64,000 nucleotides of DNA from Phytoactinopolyspora alkaliphila (GCF_010550695.1 NZ_JAAGOB010000012.1:13844-77843); one strand, 5' to 3'. Positions 24,921 through 35,654 are shown, numbered from the stretch's first letter. The notes: generated by a model not told the origin, from the letters alone. Numbers and translations are program-made.

Positions 24921-25676
24921 GTGGGCGGTATGCATCATCCGCGACGTCGGCCCGCCGCTCTGCCGGCAGCATTCTTCACGCTCGTCCTGCTCGTCGGGGG
25001 CTGTGGCGACGAGGAGCCTGCCGGCCCCGGTGTGGGCGAAGGTAGCGAGACCTCTGCCGGCGGAGCGCCGCAGTCCCCGGACACCGGTGCTCCCGGCTCC
25101 GAGACCGCCCAAGGCGACGACGGTGGGGGAGACGAGAGCGCCGAAGGTGGCACGGACGACGAGACCTCGGACGACGAGACCTCGGACGACGGCCGCGGCG
25201 ACGAGAGTGGTCAGGACGGCGAGGAGTCCGGCGAGGCTGGTGCGGCAGCCGGCGTGACACCGAGCCCGGGCGTAGTCGGCGAGGTGCCGGCCAGGTGCCC
25301 CGAGGAAGTGGTCGCGGTGGGAGAGCGCATCACCGCGGACTACGAGCACGTCGAGATGCCGCCCGGGGACCAGCTTGCGATTCTCACCTGCGACTGGCGG
25401 GACTCGGGCAACACCATCGCCAGTGTCGAAGTGAGCTTCTCGCAGCGGATCTACGGCACCGACCTGGCCGATGTGGAAGGTGCGGAACCGGTGACGATCG
25501 CCGGCGTGGACGGCTACGTCCTGGACTCGGGCGAGCGCAAGGTCACCGCCACCATGTTCCAGTTCCACGCTGAGGGCCTGTACATCACAGGTGGATCGAT
25601 TGAGGTCGCCGACGTCGAGCAGGGTGACGTGCTGGCGCTGGCCGAAGCGGCCATCGAGTTCGTCACGTCACGGTGA
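24921..25676 (+). CDS. Putative lipoprotein with an acidic low-complexity linker
   Basis: Signal peptide with a lipobox-like LLVGGC, then a long D/E/G/S-rich region, then a roughly 130-aa C-terminal domain. No recognisable catalytic motif. Confidence 0.55.
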   Translation: MGGMHHPRRRPAALPAAFFTLVLLVGGCGDEEPAGPGVGEGSETSAGGAPQSPDTGAPGSETAQGDDGGGDESAEGGTDDETSDDETSDDGRGDESGQDGEESGEAGAAAGVTPSPGVVGEVPARCPEEVVAVGERITADYEHVEMPPGDQLAILTCDWRDSGNTIASVEVSFSQRIYGTDLADVEGAEPVTIAGVDGYVLDSGERKVTATMFQFHAEGLYITGGSIEVADVEQGDVLALAEAAIEFVTSR

Positions 25677-25701
25677 ACGCGACCGTCGTCGGCCCTCGGA
25701 G

Positions 25702-25752
25702 GCCACAGGCCCTTGCAGGCCACAGGTCCTTGCAGGCCACAGGTCCTTGCAG
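25702..25752. repeat. 17-bp tandem repeat x3 (GCCACAGGYCCTTGCAG) between convergent genes
   Basis: Three contiguous copies are seen at 25702-25718, 25719-25735 and 25736-25752. Immediately downstream is a GC hairpin CCCGGCAGGCTGCCGGG (25765-25781). Confidence 0.85.
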
Positions 25753-25801
25753 GCCTCCGTGCCCCCCGGCAGGCTGCCGGGCCGCCGGCACACCGGCCGC
25801 A

Positions 25802-28800
25802 TCAGTCGGCGTGGTGGCCCTTCGGCCGGCGCGCCCGTGCGCCACGGCTGGGCTGGTCGAACGCCTTGTCGGTGATCGAGTTGATCGCGTCCTCGATGCC
25901 GCCCACGCGATCTGCGAGCAGTCCCACGGCACCGACCGCCCGGCTCATCGGGTCCTCGTCGTCCCCGCCCAGGGCTTTGGCCCGCAGATAGGCCGACTTC
26001 ACCTCCGCCCATCGCTCGGCCTGCTCGGTGGTGAGCCGTCCACGCAGCTCCGCCAGCTTGAGTAGATTCGCCTCCGCGCCGGCGGTCAAGGTCTGTGCCT
26101 CGCCCACATAGTGGTCGTCGACCAGCGCCTCGAGCTCGTCGTCGTTCATCACCGCCACCACCCGGCCGGCCAGGGCGTTCATGTTGCGGTAGGAGCCCTG
26201 CAGCTGGAACGGCGGCTCGGTCCGCGATGCGTCGGTCTGGGCGGCCGAGGCGATGTAAGCCTGGTTGTTCGCCAGCACCACCTCCTGAACCCGGATCAAT
26301 TTACGCAGCACCGTGAGGATCTGGTCGAGCTCCACCGAGGAGTAGGGATGGACGAGCTGATCGCGCTGGGCGTTCTGGTCGCCGCGGGCAAGGCGCACCA
26401 GGAGGTCGACGTCGGCGCGCTCACGCGTGGACACGGGCGCGAGCACCGAGTTCGCGGTGAGGGAGTTCTCGATGTAGCTCAGTGCGAAGAGCTCGTCGCG
26501 GCCGGAGAGGACGTCACCGAGGTTCCATACGTCGGCGCGGTTGGCCAGCATGTCCGGCACCCGGAAACGCTGCCCTTGCTCGGTGTACGGGTTGCCGGCC
26601 ATGCACACGGCGAACCGCTTGCCGCGCAGGTCGTAGGTGCGCGTACGCCCGTTCCACACGCCCTCCATCCGGCGCTGGGCATCGCACATGGAGATGAACT
26701 TCTGCAGCAGCTCCGGATTGGTGTGCTGGATGTCGTCGAGATAGAGCAGGACGTTGTTGCCCATCTCCAGCGCGAAGTTGATCTTCTCGACCTCTTGCCG
26801 TGCCGTCGCGTTCGGCGCCTCCGCTGGATCCACCGAGGTGACCGCGTGCCCGAGCGCTGGCCCGTTCACTTTGACGAATACCAGCCCCAGGCGGCTGGCG
26901 ACGTACTCCATCAACGTCGTCTTGCCGTAGCCGGGCGGCGAGATCAGTAGCAGCAGTCCACTCTGGTCGACGCGCCTGGACTCGCCCGTGGCGCCGAGTT
27001 GCTTGGCCAGGTTGTCGCCGATCAGCGGCAGGTAGACCTCGTCGAGGAGACGGTTGCGGACGAAGCCGCTCATCACCTGCGGCTTGTACTCGTCCAGCCG
27101 GAGGACGTCGCGCTGGCGGGCGACGAGTTCGCTGCGCTGGCGCTGGTAGGCCCGGTAGGCCGGTACCCGCTCCAAGCGGAAGCGACGCGTGCGGGACAGC
27201 ACCTCGTCCAGCCGGACGCGCAGACTGCGTTCGGCGATCCGCGGGTGGGTTCCGAGTAGCCCGGTGACTGTGCTGGTCAGTGCCGCCGAGGAGTCGTACC
27301 GCGTGAGCGCGGTGCCGCACAACTCGATAGCGACGGCCTCGGGAAGATCGGAGGCCTCGAATGCCGAGGGTTCCCGCGAACGACGCTCCCCGCCGCCCGG
27401 CTCGGTGTCGGCGGTGGCCGTCATGAAGGAGCTCAGCCACGCCGTGGCGAGCTGATGCCGGGCGGCCAGATCGGATTCGAGGGCACGCAGGTCCTCTTCG
27501 AACGCCTGGCGCGATCCGGCACCCGAGCGGCGGCTCAGCGAGCGGTGGAACGAGTCGAGAAGCTTCTTCGCGCCGGCGTGAGCGACGAATCCGGCCGAGG
27601 CGTCAGCGAGTTCCTCGAACAGGTACTCGCCGGCCTGGGAGGCGTCGTCGCCGGCCACCTGTGCGGAGAGGCCCGCGTCGTGATGGAACGCGGCGATAGC
27701 CTCCCTGAGCTCGTCGCAGAGCGAGTCGACCGCGTCGGACCGGTGGAAGTTGAAGGCCGACCGGGCCTTGTGCAGCGACGCGGCCCGCGTGGACCACGAG
27801 GATCTGGCTTGTTGGTCCGCTCCGAAGGCCCAGAACAGCTGTGCCGCGCTCCGCGCGGCCGGTGTGTACCGCAGCAAGTCGGCGGCCGTGTACATCCGCA
27901 GGAGCACGTCGAGGATGGCAGCGGCGTCGTGATCGTGCACGCCGCGTTCGTAACCCTCGTCGTATCGGCTCTCCGCGACCTCACGCACCAGCCGCAGCAG
28001 CCCGTTCTCGGCGATGGCCGCTTCATGGAGGCGCTCGAGGGTGAGGCCGTTGCGCTCCTGAGCGTCGGCGAGGATCGACGCCGCGAGGTATTCGGCGCGG
28101 TACACGTCGGGCGCTTCGGAGACGAGCAACTGATCCCAGAACGGGCGGGTCTTCTCGAACTCGGGATCGTCGACGGGGGCGTGGAAGTCGGTCCCGGTGA
28201 CGGTGAAGGTCATCCGGCCGTCGTGGGGGACCAGGGTCAAGTCGATCGCTTGCGTGTTGACCGCGAACCGGTGCTGGCCGAAGCGGATCGTCTCGCCGCC
28301 GTCGTCGTACAGGTCGATGCGGTCTCGCAGTGCCCGGCCGGCCTCCTGCTGCGCGGCCTTGATCCGGCCGTCGAGCTCCTCTGCTCGGACCTGGTCGCCG
28401 AGCTCGCGGAGCTCGGTGGCGACTTTCCGGAGCCTCGCGACCATCGCGTCGGAGGCGAAGTACGTGTTGACCTCGTCGACCGAGCCGAGAGAGGTGACAC
28501 GCCGCTGCACGTTGGTGAGGATGCGCTCGGCCGAGTCGGTGAGACGGTCGGCCCGTCGGGTGCGCTCGTCGACGAGCGCCTGCTTGCGCGCGGAGAACGC
28601 CTCGTAGACGTCTTCCCGCTTGGTCTCGAGCTCAGCCAGGAAGTCGTCGAATTCGGTGAAGCGGGCCTCGAGGTTCTCCAGCTGCAGCAGCAGCCGGCCG
28701 AGCTGATCGTCGCACGCGTCGGGGGTGTTCGCCACCGCCAGAGCACCGGTGATCGCCTGTCCGAGCAGCGCGAACTCAGCGGCGAACTCCGCCCGTCCCT

Positions 28801-30988
28801 CGGTAGCGAGCAGGTCGCGCCGGCGGCCCTCGAGTGTGGCTCGGGCCCGGTTCAGCGCGCCGAGCACCTCGCCGATCCGCTCGAGAATGGCAGTGCGCAT
28901 GGTGGCGTCGGCGATGTCCAAGGATCCGATGACGTCGGTCACCGTCTCCAGCGCCTGGGACTGCTCGGCCAGCCGGTCGGCCACCTCGGTGGCGTCGGCG
29001 ACCGTGGGAATCACCGCCGCCTCGGCGGTGAGCCGGTCCACATCCTCGTGATAGCTGAGGAAGGCGTCCTCGCGTTGCAGGAACTCCACGGCCCGCTCGG
29101 CCGCGGAGGCGAGCTCGTCCTCAAGGGTCCGGTCCAGCTCGTCCAGCCGGTCCGCGTCGACGTAGCGCATGTCGCGCAGCGTCACCACGTGCCCCTTGGA
29201 CCGCCGGAGCTCGGCGAGCTGGGTCACCCACGCCTCAGCGGAGCGCGGAGCCTCGCCACGTACCCGCCGCACCAGGGACTGGATGCTCTGCGCCGTTTCT
29301 TCCACGGCCGCCGTGGACTGAGCGATCAGCGCCTGGACGTTCTCGAACTCGTCCAGAACCTGTTCCGCGGTGGTCCTGATCTCCGCCAGTGGCGTGCGTA
29401 GATCTGAGAGGTCACGATCCCCGAGCCAGTGATAGCTGTCGAAGGCGCGGGCGCAGGCGGCGATGATCGCCTCGAACACCGCGGTGGACGGTGCCATCTC
29501 GCTGATCATCCGGGTCACGGACAGGCAGTCGGAGATACCCCGGACGAGCTCGGCGTTGCCGACCCGCTCGAGGGGGCCGGTTCCCACGGGCTGGGCGGCC
29601 GCGTAGACGTCGGACTGGAACGGCGTCTGCCACACCTGCACTGGGTGGACCCGCGTTGGTTCCTCGGACGTGGCGCGCAGGATCACCAGCGTGCCGTCGT
29701 CGAAGAGCGAGTATCCGTGGCAGGGGATCGGGGTGGCCACGTCCTTGCGGATCACGTTGTAGGGCAGGAGCAGCGAGCGGCCCTCTTCGCGGGCATGGAA
29801 GACGTACAGAACGTCCTCGCCGTTGGGCGAGCGGATCGTGCGCTTGAACTCCAGGTCGGTGACGTCGGCATCGAAGGTCCGGTACTCGCCGGTGGCAAGG
29901 TAGTAGCCATCCGGGAAGATGATGCCGTGATCCTCGGGTAGCTGCAGGCAGGCCTGTCCGATGCCGTCGAGGCGGACGACCTGGGTGGTCCTGGTGTTGA
30001 AGACGAGGTGGCGCCACGTGGTCTCGTTGTAGGGCCGGATCCGGAGCAGGATGAGCGAGCCCAGACGGGCGTAGTGCACGTCGGCGTCGGCGAGACTCTG
30101 CAGTGCCTCGTCCACCGGCTCACGGTAGATGCCCGCGCCCGACTCGGTGTTGTTCTCCACCTTGATGGTGAGCTCGCCGCCAGTGGTCTCCACGAAGACG
30201 GCGTCCTCGATCGAGATGTGCGGGTACCGTCCCGGGACGTGGTTCTCCCGGGTGGTCTCGATCCACTCGAAGTCGTGCGATGGCGGGAAGGTGTGGTCAC
30301 GGTCGCCGCGGTTGTCCTGGTAGGCGAGCGTCCCGTCCGGTCCGGTCCGCCAGCGCAGCACTCGGGTGTCGTCGATACTGGGCCCGGTCTGGAAGACCGC
30401 GAGGAGCTTGTCCTCGGTCCGGCGGAGCTGAAGAAGGCGAGTCTGCCGGAAGTACCGGTACATGTCCGCGAACTCGCGCTGGAACCGGTCGCCTTCCAGC
30501 AGCCCGGGCAGCTCGTCCAGATCGGCGTCGTCGAAGCGGAAGGAGCCCGTAGCGGCCTCATCGCCTGCACCGGCTGCCGTGTCGCCCGCGGCTCGCGCGA
30601 ACCGGTGCAGCGAGAAGACGTCGGAGATCTTGGTCTCCGGCTTCATGCCGATGAACACGTTGTAGCCGAAGAGCATCAACCCGCCGGCGCCGGCGTTGCC
30701 GTTTCCGTCCACTTCCTGTGGGGACCCCATGCTGAGTGAGACGATGTCCCGCGGCACGCAATTGTGCTCGGTGCGGATCCGTTCAGTGCCGATCAGCTCG
30801 AGCTGGGCTCCACCGAAGACGTCCAGGCGCTGGACATTGAGCCGCTCGGCCCGGGCAGCGAGTTCTCCGGCCTGTTCCCGCAGCCGGGAACGGAGCACCT
30901 CGTAGGTGCCGGCTTCCAGGCCGGGGTGGTCGTCGTTCTCGGTGCGCTCGGAGCCGGCCGGCGGGGCTTCGGTCGTGGTCTCGGACAC
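25802..30988 (-). CDS. Giant 1728-aa protein with a C-terminal AAA+ (AAA_5-like) ATPase module, co-operonic with flotillin/NfeD; function unknown
   Basis: A single uninterrupted ORF whose start lies 7 nt after the flotillin stop. Walker A LLISPPGYGKTT and Walker B VLLYLDDIQH lie about 380-300 aa from the C-terminus, followed by a sensor-like GNPYTEQGQRFRVPDMLANRADVW segment. The N-terminal roughly 500 aa look beta-rich; the middle roughly 800 aa are alpha-helical with charged repeats. Confidence 0.8.
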   Translation of the reverse strand: MSETTTEAPPAGSERTENDDHPGLEAGTYEVLRSRLREQAGELAARAERLNVQRLDVFGGAQLELIGTERIRTEHNCVPRDIVSLSMGSPQEVDGNGNAGAGGLMLFGYNVFIGMKPETKISDVFSLHRFARAAGDTAAGAGDEAATGSFRFDDADLDELPGLLEGDRFQREFADMYRYFRQTRLLQLRRTEDKLLAVFQTGPSIDDTRVLRWRTGPDGTLAYQDNRGDRDHTFPPSHDFEWIETTRENHVPGRYPHISIEDAVFVETTGGELTIKVENNTESGAGIYREPVDEALQSLADADVHYARLGSLILLRIRPYNETTWRHLVFNTRTTQVVRLDGIGQACLQLPEDHGIIFPDGYYLATGEYRTFDADVTDLEFKRTIRSPNGEDVLYVFHAREEGRSLLLPYNVIRKDVATPIPCHGYSLFDDGTLVILRATSEEPTRVHPVQVWQTPFQSDVYAAAQPVGTGPLERVGNAELVRGISDCLSVTRMISEMAPSTAVFEAIIAACARAFDSYHWLGDRDLSDLRTPLAEIRTTAEQVLDEFENVQALIAQSTAAVEETAQSIQSLVRRVRGEAPRSAEAWVTQLAELRRSKGHVVTLRDMRYVDADRLDELDRTLEDELASAAERAVEFLQREDAFLSYHEDVDRLTAEAAVIPTVADATEVADRLAEQSQALETVTDVIGSLDIADATMRTAILERIGEVLGALNRARATLEGRRRDLLATEGRAEFAAEFALLGQAITGALAVANTPDACDDQLGRLLLQLENLEARFTEFDDFLAELETKREDVYEAFSARKQALVDERTRRADRLTDSAERILTNVQRRVTSLGSVDEVNTYFASDAMVARLRKVATELRELGDQVRAEELDGRIKAAQQEAGRALRDRIDLYDDGGETIRFGQHRFAVNTQAIDLTLVPHDGRMTFTVTGTDFHAPVDDPEFEKTRPFWDQLLVSEAPDVYRAEYLAASILADAQERNGLTLERLHEAAIAENGLLRLVREVAESRYDEGYERGVHDHDAAAILDVLLRMYTAADLLRYTPAARSAAQLFWAFGADQQARSSWSTRAASLHKARSAFNFHRSDAVDSLCDELREAIAAFHHDAGLSAQVAGDDASQAGEYLFEELADASAGFVAHAGAKKLLDSFHRSLSRRSGAGSRQAFEEDLRALESDLAARHQLATAWLSSFMTATADTEPGGGERRSREPSAFEASDLPEAVAIELCGTALTRYDSSAALTSTVTGLLGTHPRIAERSLRVRLDEVLSRTRRFRLERVPAYRAYQRQRSELVARQRDVLRLDEYKPQVMSGFVRNRLLDEVYLPLIGDNLAKQLGATGESRRVDQSGLLLLISPPGYGKTTLMEYVASRLGLVFVKVNGPALGHAVTSVDPAEAPNATARQEVEKINFALEMGNNVLLYLDDIQHTNPELLQKFISMCDAQRRMEGVWNGRTRTYDLRGKRFAVCMAGNPYTEQGQRFRVPDMLANRADVWNLGDVLSGRDELFALSYIENSLTANSVLAPVSTRERADVDLLVRLARGDQNAQRDQLVHPYSSVELDQILTVLRKLIRVQEVVLANNQAYIASAAQTDASRTEPPFQLQGSYRNMNALAGRVVAVMNDDELEALVDDHYVGEAQTLTAGAEANLLKLAELRGRLTTEQAERWAEVKSAYLRAKALGGDDEDPMSRAVGAVGLLADRVGGIEDAINSITDKAFDQPSRGARARRPKGHHAD

Positions 30989-30995
30989 GCCGGTG

Positions 30996-33005
30996 TTACT
31001 GCTTCGCGCCGGTCAGAGCGGCCACGGGCTGGTCGGCGAAGCCCAGACTGCGCGCCGTGTCGAGCAGGCCCTGCAGCTTCGCCGTGTTCGGCCCGCCCTT
31101 GCCGATCAGCTGCATGAGCAGCGCGGAGACGGTGAGATTCTTCAGGTCCTCGGTGTCGAAGGAGCCGAGCAGCCCGGTGATGTCGTCGACGAAGCTCGAC
31201 GAGCCGTTCAACCAGGGCTTGGCGAGCGTGCTGACCACCTCCGAGTTGCCGACGAACCCGTCCACGCCCTTGCCGAGGGAGATCGAGCTCATCAGCCGGT
31301 CGAAGAAGACGCTCTCGCCGCCGACGATGCTGATGTCGGCCTGCTCCAGACCCGTGGCCAGAACACTGGCCTGGGCCTCGGCGACGTCCTTCTGGACGTT
31401 GAGGGAAGCGAGCCTGACGTCCTTCTCCATCTCCAGCCGCAGCCGGAACTCCTCGTGCTCCCGGCTCGCGTCATCCAGCGCCGCCATCGCGGCCGCCTTC
31501 TCGGTGAGACCTTCCGCCTCGCCCTTGAGCTTCTCCCGGATCGCCTCGGCCTCGACGAGTGCCTTCTCCCGCGCGGCGGACGCCTCGGCCCGGCCGACCT
31601 TCTCGATGACCTCGGCGTCGCGCTCGCGGACCTGGACGTCGGCCAAGCCTGCAGCGGCGGCCTCGGCTTGAGTTCCTTCGGCGAGGCGGATCTTGGCTTG
31701 CGCGTCCAGCTCTGCCGCCTGCTGGCGGGCATCGGCGAGCACCAGCTCTTCCTGGGCCTTGTGCTTGGCGGCCTGTTCGGCGGCCTCCGCGGCCTTGATG
31801 TCCTTGACCAGGTTCTCCTGGGCTTCCGCCTCGGCCGTGATGACTCGGGCCTCGCGCTCCCGCTCCGCTTCCTCGACCGTGCGGACTCGCTTGATGTTCT
31901 CTTCCTGCTCGGCGACGGTCTTGTCGACCGCGACGCGTTCCCGCACGATCTCGGCGACCGCGCGCTTCTCGGTCTCGACCTCCTTCGCCATCTCGATGGT
32001 GGCGAGCTCGGTTTCCCGGTCCCGCGCCACGACCTCGAGCATGCGGTCCTTCTCGATCTTCTCCGTCTCGACCGCGACGACACGCTGCCGGTTCAGTTCG
32101 GCCACCGCGATCTCGCGGGCCTTGTTCTCGTTCTGCACACCGATCTGCTCGTCGGTGCGCAGGTTCGCGGCCTCGGCCTTGAACCGCTCCTCCGCCCGGA
32201 CACGTGCCGTCTCAGCCTCTTCACGCGCCCGCAGAGTATCGACCTCACGCTGCTGGGTCGCCTCGGCGTCGGCCTGGCGGCGCTCCAGCTCGAGGATCGC
32301 CTCACGCGCGTCGACGTTCTGGCGGGTGATCTCCTTCTCGCGGTTGCGCTCGTAGTCGTTGGTGCGGATGTGCTCCAGCGCGGTGAGTTCGGTGATCTTC
32401 CGGATGCCCTGGGCGTCCAGGATGTTCTGGCCGTCGAGCTGGGACATCGGTGTCTGCTCGAGGAAGTCGATCGCGGCGTCCTCGAGGCTGTAACCGTTGA
32501 GGTCGGTGCCGATGACCCGGATGATCTGGTCACGGAACTCGTCACGCTTGGTGTAGAGGTCGACGAAGTCCATGTGCTTGCCGACGGTCTTCAGCGCCTC
32601 GGAGAACTTGGCGTTGAACAGCTCCTGCAGAGTGTTCTGATCGCTGGCGCGCGCGGTGCCGATGGCCTGGGCGACCTTCACGACGTCTTCGACGGTCTTG
32701 TTGACCCGGACGAAGAAGGTGATCCTGATGTCCGCCCGGATGTTGTCCTTGCAGATCAGGCCTTCGTGACCGGTCCGTTCGATGTCGATGGTCTTGACCG
32801 AGATGTCCATGAACTCGGCCTTGTGAATGATCGGCAGGACCACCGCGCCGGTGAAGGTGACGTCGACTCTCTTCACCTTCGAGATGATCAACGCCCGGCC
32901 CTGCTCGACCTTGCGGAACAGCCGGGTGATCACGAAGACCAAGCCCAGCAGCACGATGAGTATGACGGCTAGCAGCACACCGAAACCGGTGCCGAGGGTT
33001 TCCAT
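30996..33005 (-). CDS. Flotillin-like protein (SPFH/band-7 domain plus long EA-rich coiled coil), YqiK/FloT type
   Basis: 669 aa with an N-terminal TM helix and an SPFH core (RALIISKVKRVDVTFTGAVVLPIIHKAEFMDISVKTIDIER...). It is followed by about 300 aa of E/A/R/K-rich heptad repeats and a C-terminal flotillin tail. Confidence 0.9.
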   Translation of the reverse strand: METLGTGFGVLLAVILIVLLGLVFVITRLFRKVEQGRALIISKVKRVDVTFTGAVVLPIIHKAEFMDISVKTIDIERTGHEGLICKDNIRADIRITFFVRVNKTVEDVVKVAQAIGTARASDQNTLQELFNAKFSEALKTVGKHMDFVDLYTKRDEFRDQIIRVIGTDLNGYSLEDAAIDFLEQTPMSQLDGQNILDAQGIRKITELTALEHIRTNDYERNREKEITRQNVDAREAILELERRQADAEATQQREVDTLRAREEAETARVRAEERFKAEAANLRTDEQIGVQNENKAREIAVAELNRQRVVAVETEKIEKDRMLEVVARDRETELATIEMAKEVETEKRAVAEIVRERVAVDKTVAEQEENIKRVRTVEEAEREREARVITAEAEAQENLVKDIKAAEAAEQAAKHKAQEELVLADARQQAAELDAQAKIRLAEGTQAEAAAAGLADVQVRERDAEVIEKVGRAEASAAREKALVEAEAIREKLKGEAEGLTEKAAAMAALDDASREHEEFRLRLEMEKDVRLASLNVQKDVAEAQASVLATGLEQADISIVGGESVFFDRLMSSISLGKGVDGFVGNSEVVSTLAKPWLNGSSSFVDDITGLLGSFDTEDLKNLTVSALLMQLIGKGGPNTAKLQGLLDTARSLGFADQPVAALTGAKQ

Positions 33006-33051
33006 CTCGTGAGAATCCTTACGTCAAGAACGAATGGTGAGGCCGGGTGGG

Positions 33052-33684
33052 TCAGAGCCTGCCGCCGGGGTCGAGCTCGGCGGCGAACGGCGAGACCCAG
33101 AAGAACTCGCCGTCAGAGTCGTAGTCGAAGATCAGTGCGGTGCTTCCGGAGAGGAACTCGTCGTCGCCGGTCTGGCGTACGTGAATGATCGCTGTGGAGC
33201 CGTCGTCAGCGGTGACCTCCGCCTGGCCGGTCCCGTGCCCGAGGGGTGCGGTGCGGATGACACAGATCTTGCCGACGAAGTCGGAACGTGAGGATTCGCG
33301 GATCTGGGGGAGGGTGCGCCGGATGAACATCACGACGAGCGAGGTGATGACCCACGCGATCACCACCGCGAGCGCGACGGCGACGATGCCCAGCGCCACC
33401 GTGGCCGGCGTGGGAAGGTCCAGTTCGCCAAGCGCCACCGTGGCGCTGAGCGCTGCGAACCAGGCGATGGCGATGATCAATGACAACGACACGGTGACCG
33501 GCACTCCCCGCAGGCCCACCGCGGCCGCGAAGTCGGCTGCGCCGGCTTCGGCGGATTCGCCGTCGAGCATGTCGATTCCCAGCCCGCCCACAATAACGAG
33601 CACCCAGTACGCCACGACCACCAGCAGCATGAAGCTGAACACGACAGCGGGGAAGGTCAGGGCGTGGTCAATGAGGTCAGCCAT
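33052..33684 (-). CDS. NfeD-family membrane protein (short form, C-terminal OB-fold), YqiJ/NfeD2 type
   Basis: 210 aa with 3-4 N-terminal TM helices and a C-terminal beta domain (DFVGKICVIRTAPLGHGTGQAEVTADDGSTAIIHV). It sits directly upstream of the flotillin gene, the canonical NfeD-SPFH pairing. Confidence 0.8.
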   Translation of the reverse strand: MADLIDHALTFPAVVFSFMLLVVVAYWVLVIVGGLGIDMLDGESAEAGAADFAAAVGLRGVPVTVSLSLIIAIAWFAALSATVALGELDLPTPATVALGIVAVALAVVIAWVITSLVVMFIRRTLPQIRESSRSDFVGKICVIRTAPLGHGTGQAEVTADDGSTAIIHVRQTGDDEFLSGSTALIFDYDSDGEFFWVSPFAAELDPGGRL

Positions 33685-33788
33685 CGTCGAACGGGCCCCC
33701 CTTCCCGTGACTGCCGGACCGTGACTCGCCGGAGTATAGCGGTCGGCAACGTCACTGTCCTGCGGGCGTCCGCACTCCGGCGGAGACG

Positions 33789-34652
33789 TCAGGTCGGAGA
33801 GCGGTGGGCGCTGGATGACTCGTCGCTGGGAGACGGAGAACGCAGGACATCCGGAGCAGAGCCGGCCCGGTGACGTTCCCCGTCACCTGTCGCGTCACCG
33901 TCCGAATCGCCGCCTGCGCCGGTTTCCTGACGTCCTTTCGCCTCGGCTCGGATCAGCAGGACGAATCCGACGACACCGACGGTGGCGAAGATGAACCACT
34001 GAACGGCGTAGGACAGGTGCGGACCACTGTCGGCCTCCGGCGGCGGGATGGCGGTGAAGCCTTCCTGGACCGGAGGCGTCGCTTCGGCCCAAGCCGGGTA
34101 CACGGGATACGGCATCGCCTCGGCGATCTCGGCGACGTTGACCGCGCGGACCGTCCCCTGGCCGAGCGTGCCCCCGGCGTCCCGATGGTCCTCGGTGACC
34201 CGGAGGCGCACGACGACGTCGACCTCGCCGGACGGTGGGGGCGGCACATCCGGGTTGTCGTCGGCGGCCGGGACGAACCCGCGGTCGACGAGAAGTGCAG
34301 TGCCGTCAGCTGTGACCAGCGGAGTAACGACGTGCACGCCGCGTTGACCGCCAAGAGGCCGCAGCCGGAGAAACAGCTCGTTGCTGGGATCGTAGCGGCC
34401 TCTGACCTCGGTGCGTCGCCACTGATCGGCGGTGTCGAAGCTCTCACCCGGCGCGAGAATCGCGTCCAGCGGTACGGGTGGCGCGTCGGCGTTGGCCTCG
34501 ATCACGGCGTTGCGTTCGGAGCGCCCGTCGGCGCGGTCGAGCTGCCACATGCCGAGCCGGAGGCAGACCAGGACGAGCAAAATGCCGGCCACCGTACGGA
34601 CCAGCCACCGCCTGCTCGCGAGGAACCTGTACACAAATCGACCGTAGACCAT
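33789..34652 (-). CDS. SURF1-family protein (cytochrome oxidase biogenesis-like), paralog 1
   Basis: 287 aa. Has an N-terminal TM helix with WQLDR, and the C-terminal SURF1 signature LSYAVQWFIFATVGVVGFV. Confidence 0.8.
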   Translation of the reverse strand: MVYGRFVYRFLASRRWLVRTVAGILLVLVCLRLGMWQLDRADGRSERNAVIEANADAPPVPLDAILAPGESFDTADQWRRTEVRGRYDPSNELFLRLRPLGGQRGVHVVTPLVTADGTALLVDRGFVPAADDNPDVPPPPSGEVDVVVRLRVTEDHRDAGGTLGQGTVRAVNVAEIAEAMPYPVYPAWAEATPPVQEGFTAIPPPEADSGPHLSYAVQWFIFATVGVVGFVLLIRAEAKGRQETGAGGDSDGDATGDGERHRAGSAPDVLRSPSPSDESSSAHRSPT

Positions 34653-34664
34653 AGCCTGGAGAAC

Positions 34665-35654
34665 ATGCTTATCGACCGGTATGGGCGTACCGCCACAGAT
34701 TTACGAGTGTCGTTGACCGACCGATGCAACCTGCGGTGCACGTACTGCATGCCGGAAGAGGGACTGTCGTGGCTACCCAAGCCCGAGATGCTCACCGACG
34801 ACGAGGTCGTTCGCCTCGTTCGCGTCGGGGTCGAGCGGCTCGGCATCCGCGAGGTCCGGTTCACCGGTGGTGAGCCGCTGCTGCGCCGCGGACTGGTCGA
34901 CATCGTGGCGGCGTGCGCCGCCTTGACGCCCAGGCCGGAGCTGTCCCTGACCACCAATGCCGTCGGGCTCGCGCGTACGGCTGAAGCACTGGCGAATGCC
35001 GGCCTGGACCGGGTCAACGGGTCGCTGGACACCTTGCGTGCGGATCGGTTCGAAGTGCTGACGCACCGGCGTCGCCTCGACGACGTCCTGAAGGGCCTCG
35101 CGGCAGCCGACGCAGCCGGTTTGGCGCCGGTGAAGGTGAACGCCGTCCTCATGCGCGACGTGAACGACGACGAGGCACCGGACCTGCTGAGCTGGGCCCT
35201 GGATCACGGCTACGAGCTGCGCTTCATCGAGCAGATGCCGTTGGACGCGCAGCACGCCTGGAACCGTGCGGACATGGTGACCGCGGGGGACATCCTCGTG
35301 TCTCTGCAGGAGGCATTCGAGCTGACTCCCGCCCACCCGGAGGAGCGCGGGAGTGCGCCGGCGGAGACCTGGCTGGTCAACGGCGGTCCCGCGCGTGTCG
35401 GCATCATCGCCTCGGTGACCAGGCCCTTCTGCGGCACGTGTGACCGCACCCGGCTCACCGCGGATGGACAGATCCGCACCTGCCTGTTCGCGCGCGACGA
35501 GTCTGATCTGCGAGGCGCGATGCGCGCCGGCGCCAGCGACGAGGAGCTGGCCGAGCGCTGGCAGGTGGCGATGGCGGGCAAGGCGGCCGGACACGGCATC
35601 GACGATCCGGGATTCCTGCAGCCGTCCCGCCCGATGTCGGCGATCGGCGGCTGA
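34665..35654 (+). CDS. moaA: GTP 3',8-cyclase (molybdenum cofactor biosynthesis protein A)
   Basis: 329 aa with the radical-SAM motif CNLRCTYCMP and the C-terminal [4Fe-4S] Cys motif CGTCDRTRLTADGQIRTC. ATG at 34665; the longer ORF from 33870 is rejected. Confidence 0.93.
   Translation: MLIDRYGRTATDLRVSLTDRCNLRCTYCMPEEGLSWLPKPEMLTDDEVVRLVRVGVERLGIREVRFTGGEPLLRRGLVDIVAACAALTPRPELSLTTNAVGLARTAEALANAGLDRVNGSLDTLRADRFEVLTHRRRLDDVLKGLAAADAAGLAPVKVNAVLMRDVNDDEAPDLLSWALDHGYELRFIEQMPLDAQHAWNRADMVTAGDILVSLQEAFELTPAHPEERGSAPAETWLVNGGPARVGIIASVTRPFCGTCDRTRLTADGQIRTCLFARDESDLRGAMRAGASDEELAERWQVAMAGKAAGHGIDDPGFLQPSRPMSAIGG

Follow-up and report, generated by a model that had tools for sequence, protein, structure and literature searches.

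A predicted minimal, PspA-less relative of the Bac-type flotillin-ATPase operon in Phytoactinopolyspora alkaliphila

Introduction

Large assemblies of SPFH proteins, shaped as rings or cages, pair with AAA+ machines, as in HflK/C-FtsH and prohibitin-m-AAA. The mechanism of bacterial flotillins is still debated and we know of no energy source tied to them. Here, a tandem of three genes from Phytoactinopolyspora alkaliphila is described, which encodes a small, possibly NfeD-like membrane protein, a flotillin and a giant AAA+ protein of 1728 amino acids (AA). The trio was analyzed within a stretch of 64,000 nt (the window) from this genome of 68% GC, and all features are given in window coordinates.

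Operons combining CesT/Tir-PspA with a flotillin, a YqiJ/YuaF-like protein and a ‘novel AAA+ ATPase with coiled-coil and beta-propeller’ were described in the comparative study of phage shock protein (PSP) systems by Ravi et al. (mSystems 2024, preprint 2020; PMC11237479). In some Proteobacteria, a PLD gene is added to operons of this class. Abbreviated operons, restricted to flotillin and YqiJ/YuaF with the ATPase in some cases, have a wider distribution, and it was suggested that these work with PspA encoded elsewhere. The account is purely comparative, without a structure-based AAA+ clade and without experiment.

In Pseudomonas aeruginosa, the gene string DUF2170 - PspA_IM30 - 213 AA - 688 AA - ATPase - PLDc_2, which is followed by YaeQ, RecJ and LasB, corresponds to bacABCDEF, the ‘biofilm-associated cluster’ (PA3732-PA3727 / PA14_16140-16200) of Wallart et al. 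2024 (PMC10948618). Reverse transcription PCR products span every bac junction including that between flotillin and ATPase, a σ54 promoter was proposed for the operon, and the proteins BacB to BacF rise together 6- to 13-fold in a bacA mutant according to proteomics. BacE as an ATPase is not mentioned. In a study from 2026, PA14_16180 is named PaFlo3 and PA14_16160 is described as a short NfeD.

Shorter relatives are the operons YqiJ-YqiK of Escherichia coli and YuaF-FloT of Bacillus subtilis, in which, as in the window, a small multi-transmembrane protein with a C-terminal beta-domain precedes the flotillin. In contrast to the window, those operons have no AAA+ gene (checked for E. coli), and the window flotillin is longer than YqiK and FloT. 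The operon pair FloA-NfeD of Staphylococcus aureus, which is implicated in stress survival, is an ATP-independent holdase of unfolded proteins (Ukleja et al. 2024, PMC11222466). It resembles the window operon in pairing a flotillin with an NfeD protein, which in the window is putative, but is explicitly ATP-independent and has no ATPase partner, and FloA is a short flotillin.

Results

The trio corresponds to bacCDE

Three open reading frames (ORFs) are found in tandem on the minus strand, exactly where the first-pass annotation of this DNA had placed them. The gap is 46 nt between the small gene and the flotillin gene, and 7 nt between the TAA of the latter and the GTG of the giant gene. The GC content at third codon positions (GC3) is 0.87-0.91 in all three ORFs, which is of coding type for this genome. 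The NCBI model of the giant protein (P0001, P. alkaliphila, 1705 AA, 100% identical) starts 23 codons further in. Since 15-30 residues precede the conserved G-x-YEV motif in most homologs, the GTG start of the 1728-AA form is at least as plausible as the NCBI start.

The three proteins are collinear with BacC (213 AA), BacD/PaFlo3 (688 AA) and BacE (P0314, 1746 AA), all encoded on the same strand, with identities of 29% (E = 1e-19), 49% and 47% (over 1701 AA), respectively. The Pfam architecture of BacE equals that of the window ATPase. The P. aeruginosa ortholog is very widely held; a single 90% cluster contains 3,222 of its member sequences. Differences concern the flanks and the spacing: BacA (DUF2170/YjfI), BacB (PspA/IM30) and BacF (PLDc_2) are lacking beside the window trio, and the flotillin-ATPase gap is 149 nt in P. 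aeruginosa versus 7 nt in the window. Searches with PspA, CesT and DUF2170 queries using tblastn gave nothing in the window.

The primers listed in the supplement of PMC10948618 were mapped onto the P. aeruginosa locus (L090). Primer PA14_16180/90_F lies inside the flotillin gene and its reverse partner in the ATPase gene, over the codons of the conserved RTENNCIARD, 557 bp apart as published. PA14_16180/90_R as printed has no match with up to 3 mismatches and matches L090 with one indel. The pair PA14_16190/200 spans the ATPase-PLD junction, with a distance of 176 bp in L090 versus 501 bp printed. The indel and the 176/501-bp mismatch probably reflect errors in the table or differences between strains, and the junctions remain bracketed by the primers.

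The domain content of the trio also matches the class of Ravi et al. (PMC11237479) exactly, the window being the abbreviated form and the loci of Flavobacterium, Sphingobacterium, Agaribacterium, one metagenome-assembled genome (MAG) and plasmid pQBR103 being full versions. By its predicted proteins, the trio is thus the minimal, PspA-less actinobacterial form of the known Bac/PSP-associated flotillin-ATPase operon, which is biochemically uncharacterized. The first-pass annotation had proposed an undescribed system. This no longer holds, since the operon class and the bacCDE orthologs are both in print and the ATPase is known as co-encoded with flotillin in many annotated genomes; however, it does not belong to a well-characterized family with known function. 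Literature searches for DUF3686/PF12458 or ‘DNA repair ATPase’ together with flotillin found no report, and flotillin together with MoxR gave nothing relevant.

Flotillin is the constant neighbor of the giant ATPase

The family of the giant protein has more than 6,000 matches in a database clustered at 90%. At 50% identity, 895 clusters were obtained, 290 of them with E ≤ 1e-30, and most members have 1,600-1,850 AA. The giant protein carries an annotation in thousands of genomes, and the flotillin-ATPase module is present in hundreds of species, among them P. aeruginosa, Proteus, Vibrio, Streptomyces and Myxococcus. Identity is about 70% across actinomycete families and declines roughly with taxonomic distance. 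The module was found in 13 of 72,556 plasmid records, mostly chromids or mislabeled chromosomes, and none of 50,697 phage records matched.

When one genome per species was scanned, at least 600 family matches were obtained. Of 81 loci examined, four start at a contig border, leaving 77 with upstream DNA. In all 77, the gene immediately preceding the ATPase gene on its strand encodes a flotillin homolog (47-77% identical). The loci come from many actinomycete families, Myxococcus and other ‘delta’ genomes (Myxococcota), Acidobacteriota, Clostridia and proteobacterial MAGs. The same arrangement is present in Agaribacterium, Flavobacterium, Sphingobacterium, two metagenomic or MAG loci, pQBR103 and P. 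aeruginosa. Counting all 85 related loci for which upstream DNA is available, flotillin precedes the giant ATPase in 84, covering at least six phyla, and the start and stop codons of the two genes overlap by 4 nt in about 22 related loci. The trio is a conserved unit, and flotillin is a near-obligatory neighbor of the ATPase. The sole exception (L086:9001-12123) is a truncated copy of 1040 AA with DUF3686 and DUF7902 but without the AAA+ module; it lies near an integrase and Por-secretion-tail proteins.

A small NfeD-like gene is present in about 65 of the 77 loci. Using a crude ORF filter (≥ 100 AA, GC3 > 0.8), no candidate was detected in L038, L045, L052, L054, L056, L059, L065, L066, L068, L069, L070 and L080, which are all Streptomyces. 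Clustering of the flanking ORFs of 80 loci gave no broadly conserved partner besides the NfeD-like gene. Upstream of the module and mostly divergent from it, a PucR-like gene of about 360 AA with a C-terminal helix-turn-helix was seen in about 30 loci; the examples seen are from Streptomyces (L049:5326-6408, minus strand). This candidate for a local regulator does not occur in the window.

Gene strings were compared for distant family members, which are 27-35% identical. In Agaribacterium, DUF2170 (YjfI) and PspA are divergent from the trio. Flavobacterium has the order CesT_Tir-PspA-small protein-flotillin-(586-AA protein)-ATPase, and Sphingobacterium CesT_Tir-PspA-DUF4177-small-flotillin-ATPase with a TPM protein downstream. 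The MAG has the same string as Sphingobacterium, then DUF4178/DUF350/spermine synthase; on a metagenome contig, the trio is followed by TelA. Plasmid pQBR103 carries YjfI-PspA-rhomboid-DUF2491-DUF350-DUF1190-glutathionylspermidine synthase-small-SPFH-ATPase. In Pseudomonadota and Bacteroidota, the trio is joined to CesT/Tir or YjfI plus PspA/IM30, and genes for TelA, TPM, DUF350 and polyamine synthases are found nearby. The additional 586-AA gene between flotillin and ATPase in Flavobacterium litorale (L083:7228-8988) has a faint SMC_N match. Downstream of the module in Agaribacterium (L082:15567-20090), VasI, AbiJ_NTD4, cytidine/dCMP deaminase-family and FRG-domain genes form a defense-island-like group, which is not found in other loci.

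Domains of the giant ATPase

The N-terminal part of the giant protein had been described in the first-pass annotation as a beta-rich domain without a motif that could be placed. It is in fact DUF3686 (PF12458; residues 42-520, 699.7 bits versus a cut-off of 25, E = 1.6e-210, profile positions 1-448 of 448), followed by DUF7902 (PF25472; residues 641-724, 102 bits versus 26, E = 2.1e-29). The C-terminal AAA+ module, for which an AAA_5 match had been expected, was confirmed by matches just above the Pfam cut-offs at residues 1346-1471 (AAA_5, 27.5 bits; AAA, 27.8 bits). As proposed earlier, there is no transmembrane segment according to hydropathy (maximum KD19 1.57), and no protease domain, including Peptidase_M41, in the Pfam scan. 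Searches of NCBIfam and of PDB sequences and profiles matched the Walker A region only and retrieved no solved structure related to the propeller, coiled-coil or helical domains.

The structure was predicted with AlphaFold in two models on alignments of 48 sequences, one for residues 1-1200 (predicted local distance difference test score, pLDDT, 81.9) and one for residues 880-1728 (pLDDT 88.6, predicted template modeling score 0.79). The domains delineated are listed in Table 1. Using Foldseek, all PDB matches of the N-terminal domain were beta-propellers (sialidase 3h6j, the DCAF1 WD40 domain, Ski8 and the clathrin terminal domain; E ~2e-5). The best structural matches of the AAA+ module were CbbQ, NorQ, dynein and midasin. 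Its fold is nearest to the MoxR class, and a sensor-1 Asn and a trans-acting Arg are present, which assigns the module to this clade.

Conservation was assessed in alignments of 36 diverse and 48 mixed sequences, and each ATPase motif departs from invariance in at most one of the two, and there only slightly. In Walker A (SPPGYGKTT, 1350-1358), GYGKT is invariant in the 48 sequences, while in the 36 only P1352, G1353 and G1355 are invariant and the remainder nearly so. Walker B (LLYLDD, 1414-1419) ends in D1418 and D1419, DD instead of DE, so that the acidic pair is present with Asp in place of the catalytic Glu. This DD is found in all 48 mixed sequences and is nearly invariant among the 36 diverse ones, and conserved Q and H follow it. 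A hairpin (1440-1453) is located between the Walker B and sensor-1 strands, and N1466 (sensor-1) and R1484 (in PDMLANR) are conserved in the core. In the lid, R1589, P1592 and R1601 are invariant. The AAA core has the highest majority fraction (0.76), compared with 0.59 for the lid and 0.54 for the propeller. The segment that separates the coiled coil from the AAA+ module contains a GVHDxDA motif, of which G1016, H1018 and D1021 are invariant in either alignment and which could not be related to any known motif or function.

Flotillin and small membrane protein

The flotillin matches Band_7 (PF01145) with 39.1 bits versus a cut-off of 23.6 (E = 1e-9). Hydropathy indicates a single transmembrane segment at residues 1-34, with basic residues behind it. 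The alignment with E. coli YqiK (29% identity, E = 1e-38) includes a long E/A-rich coiled coil. The score against the FloT equivalog (NCBIfam NF058507) is 29.5 bits, far below its cut-off of 700 bits. A C-terminal extension with the consensus W-L-x-G...D-x-KNLT-x-SA-x-L...A-x-x-LG is found in most ATPase-linked flotillins, from Actinomycetes to Bacteroidota, and is not found in E. coli YqiK. Of 18 aligned linked flotillins, four are without the distal part including the LG end though the ATPase is present: the extension is absent in L075, L077 and L082, and L012 retains the KNLT-like part without the distal LG end. The extension is a candidate docking element for the ATPase.

The protein of 210 AA has three hydrophobic segments (4-41, 52-88 and 88-126 by hydropathy), an RR-rich stretch after the third and then a C-terminal beta-rich domain, which is predicted to be cytoplasmic from the positive charges behind the third segment and hydropathy. 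Its gene is directly upstream of the SPFH gene. The NfeD label of the first-pass annotation can be kept in a weakened form only. Pfam models of NfeD (PF01957) and YqiJ had no match with E ≤ 10 for the window protein and none with E ≤ 0.05 for 23 aligned homologs including it. A profile of these 23 sequences had the YuaF C-terminal domain (2K14) as its best, weak PDB match (E = 0.033), and hhalign against E. coli YqiJ gave E = 1.6e-4 with a probability of 50%. Together with the similarity to PA14_16160 (BacC), this points weakly to a YqiJ/YuaF-like (short NfeD-like) protein.

Genomic setting of the trio

In the region 25500-34000, only one σ70-like match was found when both strands were scanned; it is located upstream of gene 1, whose ATG is preceded by a ribosome-binding-like stretch (GGAAGGGGGG). 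The neighbors of the trio in the window are housekeeping genes (SURF1, MoaA, ABC transporters and MTHFR). The next gene upstream on the same strand belongs to the SURF1 family. A plus-strand MoaA ORF of 594 AA (33870-35654) had been considered as upstream neighbor and was rejected as over-extended, since frame-wise GC3 and Pfam favor the minus-strand SURF1 gene. The radical-SAM part of MoaA begins near 34695; a simple GC3 filter chose the wrong strand at the SURF1/MoaA overlap. Downstream, the giant gene faces a convergent ORF, and a tandem repeat is present in the convergent intergenic region just past the giant-gene stop. A canonical terminator was looked for in this region and none was detected.

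Table 1. Features of the flotillin-ATPase locus, in window coordinates; residues refer to the encoded protein.
Feature	Position	Strand	Residues	Basis and remarks
SURF1-family gene	33789-34652	-		Pfam E = 1.3e-42; 104 nt from operon
Promoter-like site AGGACA-17-TATACT (putative)	33733..33761	-		consensus match only; in 104-nt gap SURF1/NfeD-like gene
Gene 1, YqiJ/YuaF-like (short NfeD-like) membrane protein (weak assignment)	33052..33684	-	210 AA	translation, hydropathy, profile comparisons
Gene 2, flotillin-type SPFH protein	30996..33005	-	669 AA	Band_7, YqiK and BacD similarity
C-terminal flotillin extension (candidate docking element)	30996-31280	-	~575-669	alignment of ATPase-linked flotillins
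Gene 3, DUF3686/DUF7902/AAA+ protein	25802..30988	-	1728 AA	Pfam matches; ‘DNA repair ATPase’ in databases; BacE ortholog
Helix ahead of propeller			28-58	AlphaFold model
Beta-propeller, DUF3686 core	29627..30799	-	64-454	AlphaFold model mb330c5c75cf2, pLDDT mostly 85-95
Long-helix/coiled-coil region	28313..29557	-	478-892	model helices 25-58 residues long; contains DUF7902
Small beta-domain, HRF-VN-Q ... TGTDF	28175..28291	-	900-938	both models; conservation 0.54
All-helical domain	27407..28096	-	965-1194	models; carries G1016-V-H1018-D-x-D1021-A
GVHDxDA motif	27923-27943	-	1016-1022	both alignments
Short beta-element, then long helix			1230-1259	AlphaFold model
AAA+ alpha/beta core	26504..27061	-	1310-1495	Walker A, Walker B, hairpin, sensor-1, PDMLANR
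Walker B stretch LLYLDDIQH	26723-26749	-	1414-1422	alignments
Lid and C-terminal helical domain	25859..26503	-	1496-1710	model, alignments; RTEPPF..QGSYRNM
17-nt tandem repeat GGCCCTTGCAGGCCACA	25691-25755			3.8 copies, 93% matches
Convergent downstream ORF	24921-25676	+	251 AA	GC3 0.81; no Pfam match; not conserved beside module in other genomes

Discussion

We consider it somewhat probable that the three genes encode one membrane-associated machine, a bacCDE-like minimal core of PspA-linked envelope maintenance, in which the ATPase remodels the flotillin scaffold or frees its cargo. The N-terminal transmembrane segment would anchor the flotillin, whose oligomers would build an SPFH/coiled-coil scaffold at the cytoplasmic side of the membrane, and the YqiJ/YuaF-like protein, with three transmembrane segments and a cytoplasmic beta-domain, would support flotillin assembly. 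Hydropathy and charge place the soluble parts of both proteins in the cytoplasm, in the same compartment as the ATPase. The soluble ATPase of 1,728 AA would dock on the scaffold via its beta-propeller and/or its long coiled coil and build an AAA+ ring of the MoxR/dynein class. ATP would then be spent on assembly, disassembly or opening of the scaffold, or on releasing or extracting held proteins or a lipid patch. In this way, the flotillin-NfeD holdase, which otherwise works without ATP, would be driven by energy and act within a PspA-type membrane-maintenance response. The analysis itself documents the order of the genes, their domain architecture, the cytoplasmic topology from hydropathy and charge, the linkage of flotillin and ATPase across phyla, the repeated joining of the trio to CesT/YjfI-PspA genes and the intact nucleotide-binding motifs, and co-transcription and co-regulation are documented in the literature for the P. 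aeruginosa orthologs. Physical contact, ring formation, the remodeled target and the physiological trigger are what we infer in this scheme. A joint machine is the best supported reading, since flotillin and ATPase are paired almost without exception, the junctions are tight and the residues for nucleotide binding are conserved.

Several observations count against this reading. The trio is not universal, about 12 Streptomyces loci being without a detectable NfeD-like gene, so that flotillin and ATPase are the invariant pair; in that Streptomyces sub-lineage the module appears, from the flanking ORFs, to consist of these two only. No PspA gene was found in the window or in the 80 loci of the genome scan, and PspA is thus linked to this operon by homology with other phyla only. 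Characterized MoxR-class ATPases such as CbbQ and NorQ act via a VWA partner. A VWA/MIDAS partner gene was found neither among the window neighbors nor in the conserved flanking clusters; further differences from CbbQ/NorQ and from the AAA_5 modules of dynein and midasin are the Walker B DD and the C-terminal position of the module in a giant multidomain protein. Judging from the motif, DD instead of DE may mean slow or regulated (regulatory) hydrolysis. Deletion of paFlo3/bacD led to only ~20% less biofilm and no marked stress phenotype in the 2026 study, and the literature contains no report of a bacE mutant.

A close variant of the joint machine is a client-directed chaperone or extractor. 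Flotillin and NfeD would concentrate damaged or unfolded membrane proteins, the propeller would recognize them, and the AAA+ ring would unfold, extract or hand them on as a non-proteolytic analog of FtsH in HflK/C. The linkage of flotillin and ATPase speaks for it as much as for scaffold remodeling, a beta-propeller is a typical platform for binding ligands and peptides, SPFH-AAA+ protease pairs are established, and S. aureus FloA-NfeD holds unfolded proteins without ATP. However, AAA+ proteins of the MoxR/dynein class, to which the best matches CbbQ, NorQ, dynein and midasin belong, are not classical threading unfoldases, the actinobacterial module encodes neither a protease nor a partner chaperone, and no client is known; we consider this variant unlikely. 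The parallel to HflK/C-FtsH, already drawn in the first-pass annotation, is offered here as a hypothesis by analogy. As in HflK/C-FtsH and prohibitin-m-AAA, an SPFH scaffold is paired genetically or physically with an AAA+ machine; in contrast to FtsH, the window ATPase has no transmembrane helix and no M41 protease domain, is of the MoxR/dynein and not of the classical clade, and has ~1,700 AA with propeller and coiled coil. In addition, charge and hydropathy suggest that the window SPFH protein faces the cytoplasm and not the periplasm. Another role weighed for the ATPase is a Vps4-like action, mainly on PspA/ESCRT-III-like polymers whose genes lie elsewhere, with flotillin only as a membrane landing pad. 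PspA and its CesT/YjfI partner do share the operon in Pseudomonadota and Bacteroidota, and Ravi et al. (PMC11237479) propose that the abbreviated operons cooperate with PspA from another locus. Nevertheless, the constant partner is flotillin and not PspA, and the AAA+ fold of the giant protein is not Vps4-like; we regard this action as improbable.

Quite improbable, too, is a role in anti-phage defense or conflict, with the SPFH protein as a membrane sensor and the ATPase as the effector coupled to it. The AbiJ_NTD4, deaminase and FRG genes after the Agaribacterium locus, the presence of the module on some megaplasmids including pQBR103 and the PLD-family gene behind it in P. aeruginosa would fit such a role. 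Against it stand the phage and plasmid records, with no phage match and 13 entries mostly from chromids or mislabeled chromosomes, the housekeeping neighbors in the window, the very high conservation and the wide occurrence in P. aeruginosa. Furthermore, in PADLOC-DB 2.0 the ATPase had only matches at the Walker A level (IetA and mad8, E ≥ 0.0017, ~30 residues), which are regarded as noise, and the other two proteins had none. The database name implies a DNA repair ATPase whose flotillin neighborhood is incidental. It derives from the Pfam text for PF12458 (‘ATPase involved in DNA repair’), which NCBI propagates as ‘DNA repair ATPase’, and there are weak RuvB matches; the name has no support beyond the generic Walker A similarity to RuvB, the Pfam scan found no DNA-related domain in the giant protein, and a repair function is accordingly considered very doubtful.

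Returning to the joint machine, a bolder version is put forward tentatively, and we rate it as possible rather than probable. The DUF3686 protein would be the first dedicated ATP-driven partner of a bacterial flotillin, a MoxR/dynein-class ring whose six propeller-plus-coiled-coil arms open, disassemble or reload the flotillin cage, possibly gripping it via the C-terminal flotillin extension. The NfeD-like protein, PspA, CesT/YjfI and PLD would be lineage-specific additions, and the actinobacterial minimal operon would define the functional core of membrane-repair machines of a new SPFH-AAA+ class.

Compared to the literature found, the following links are new. One family comprises the ‘hypothetical’ BacE, the ‘DNA repair ATPase’ of the annotations and the ‘novel AAA+ ATPase’ of the PSP study; the AAA+ module of this family belongs to the MoxR/dynein class; and flotillin rather than PspA is the constant partner. 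Joined, these links turn a vague annotation into a testable hypothesis, namely whether the ATPase remodels flotillin assemblies, and flag a misleading database name. The existence of the system is no surprise to specialists in comparative work on PSP, and its value is that of a direct handle on bacterial flotillin function.

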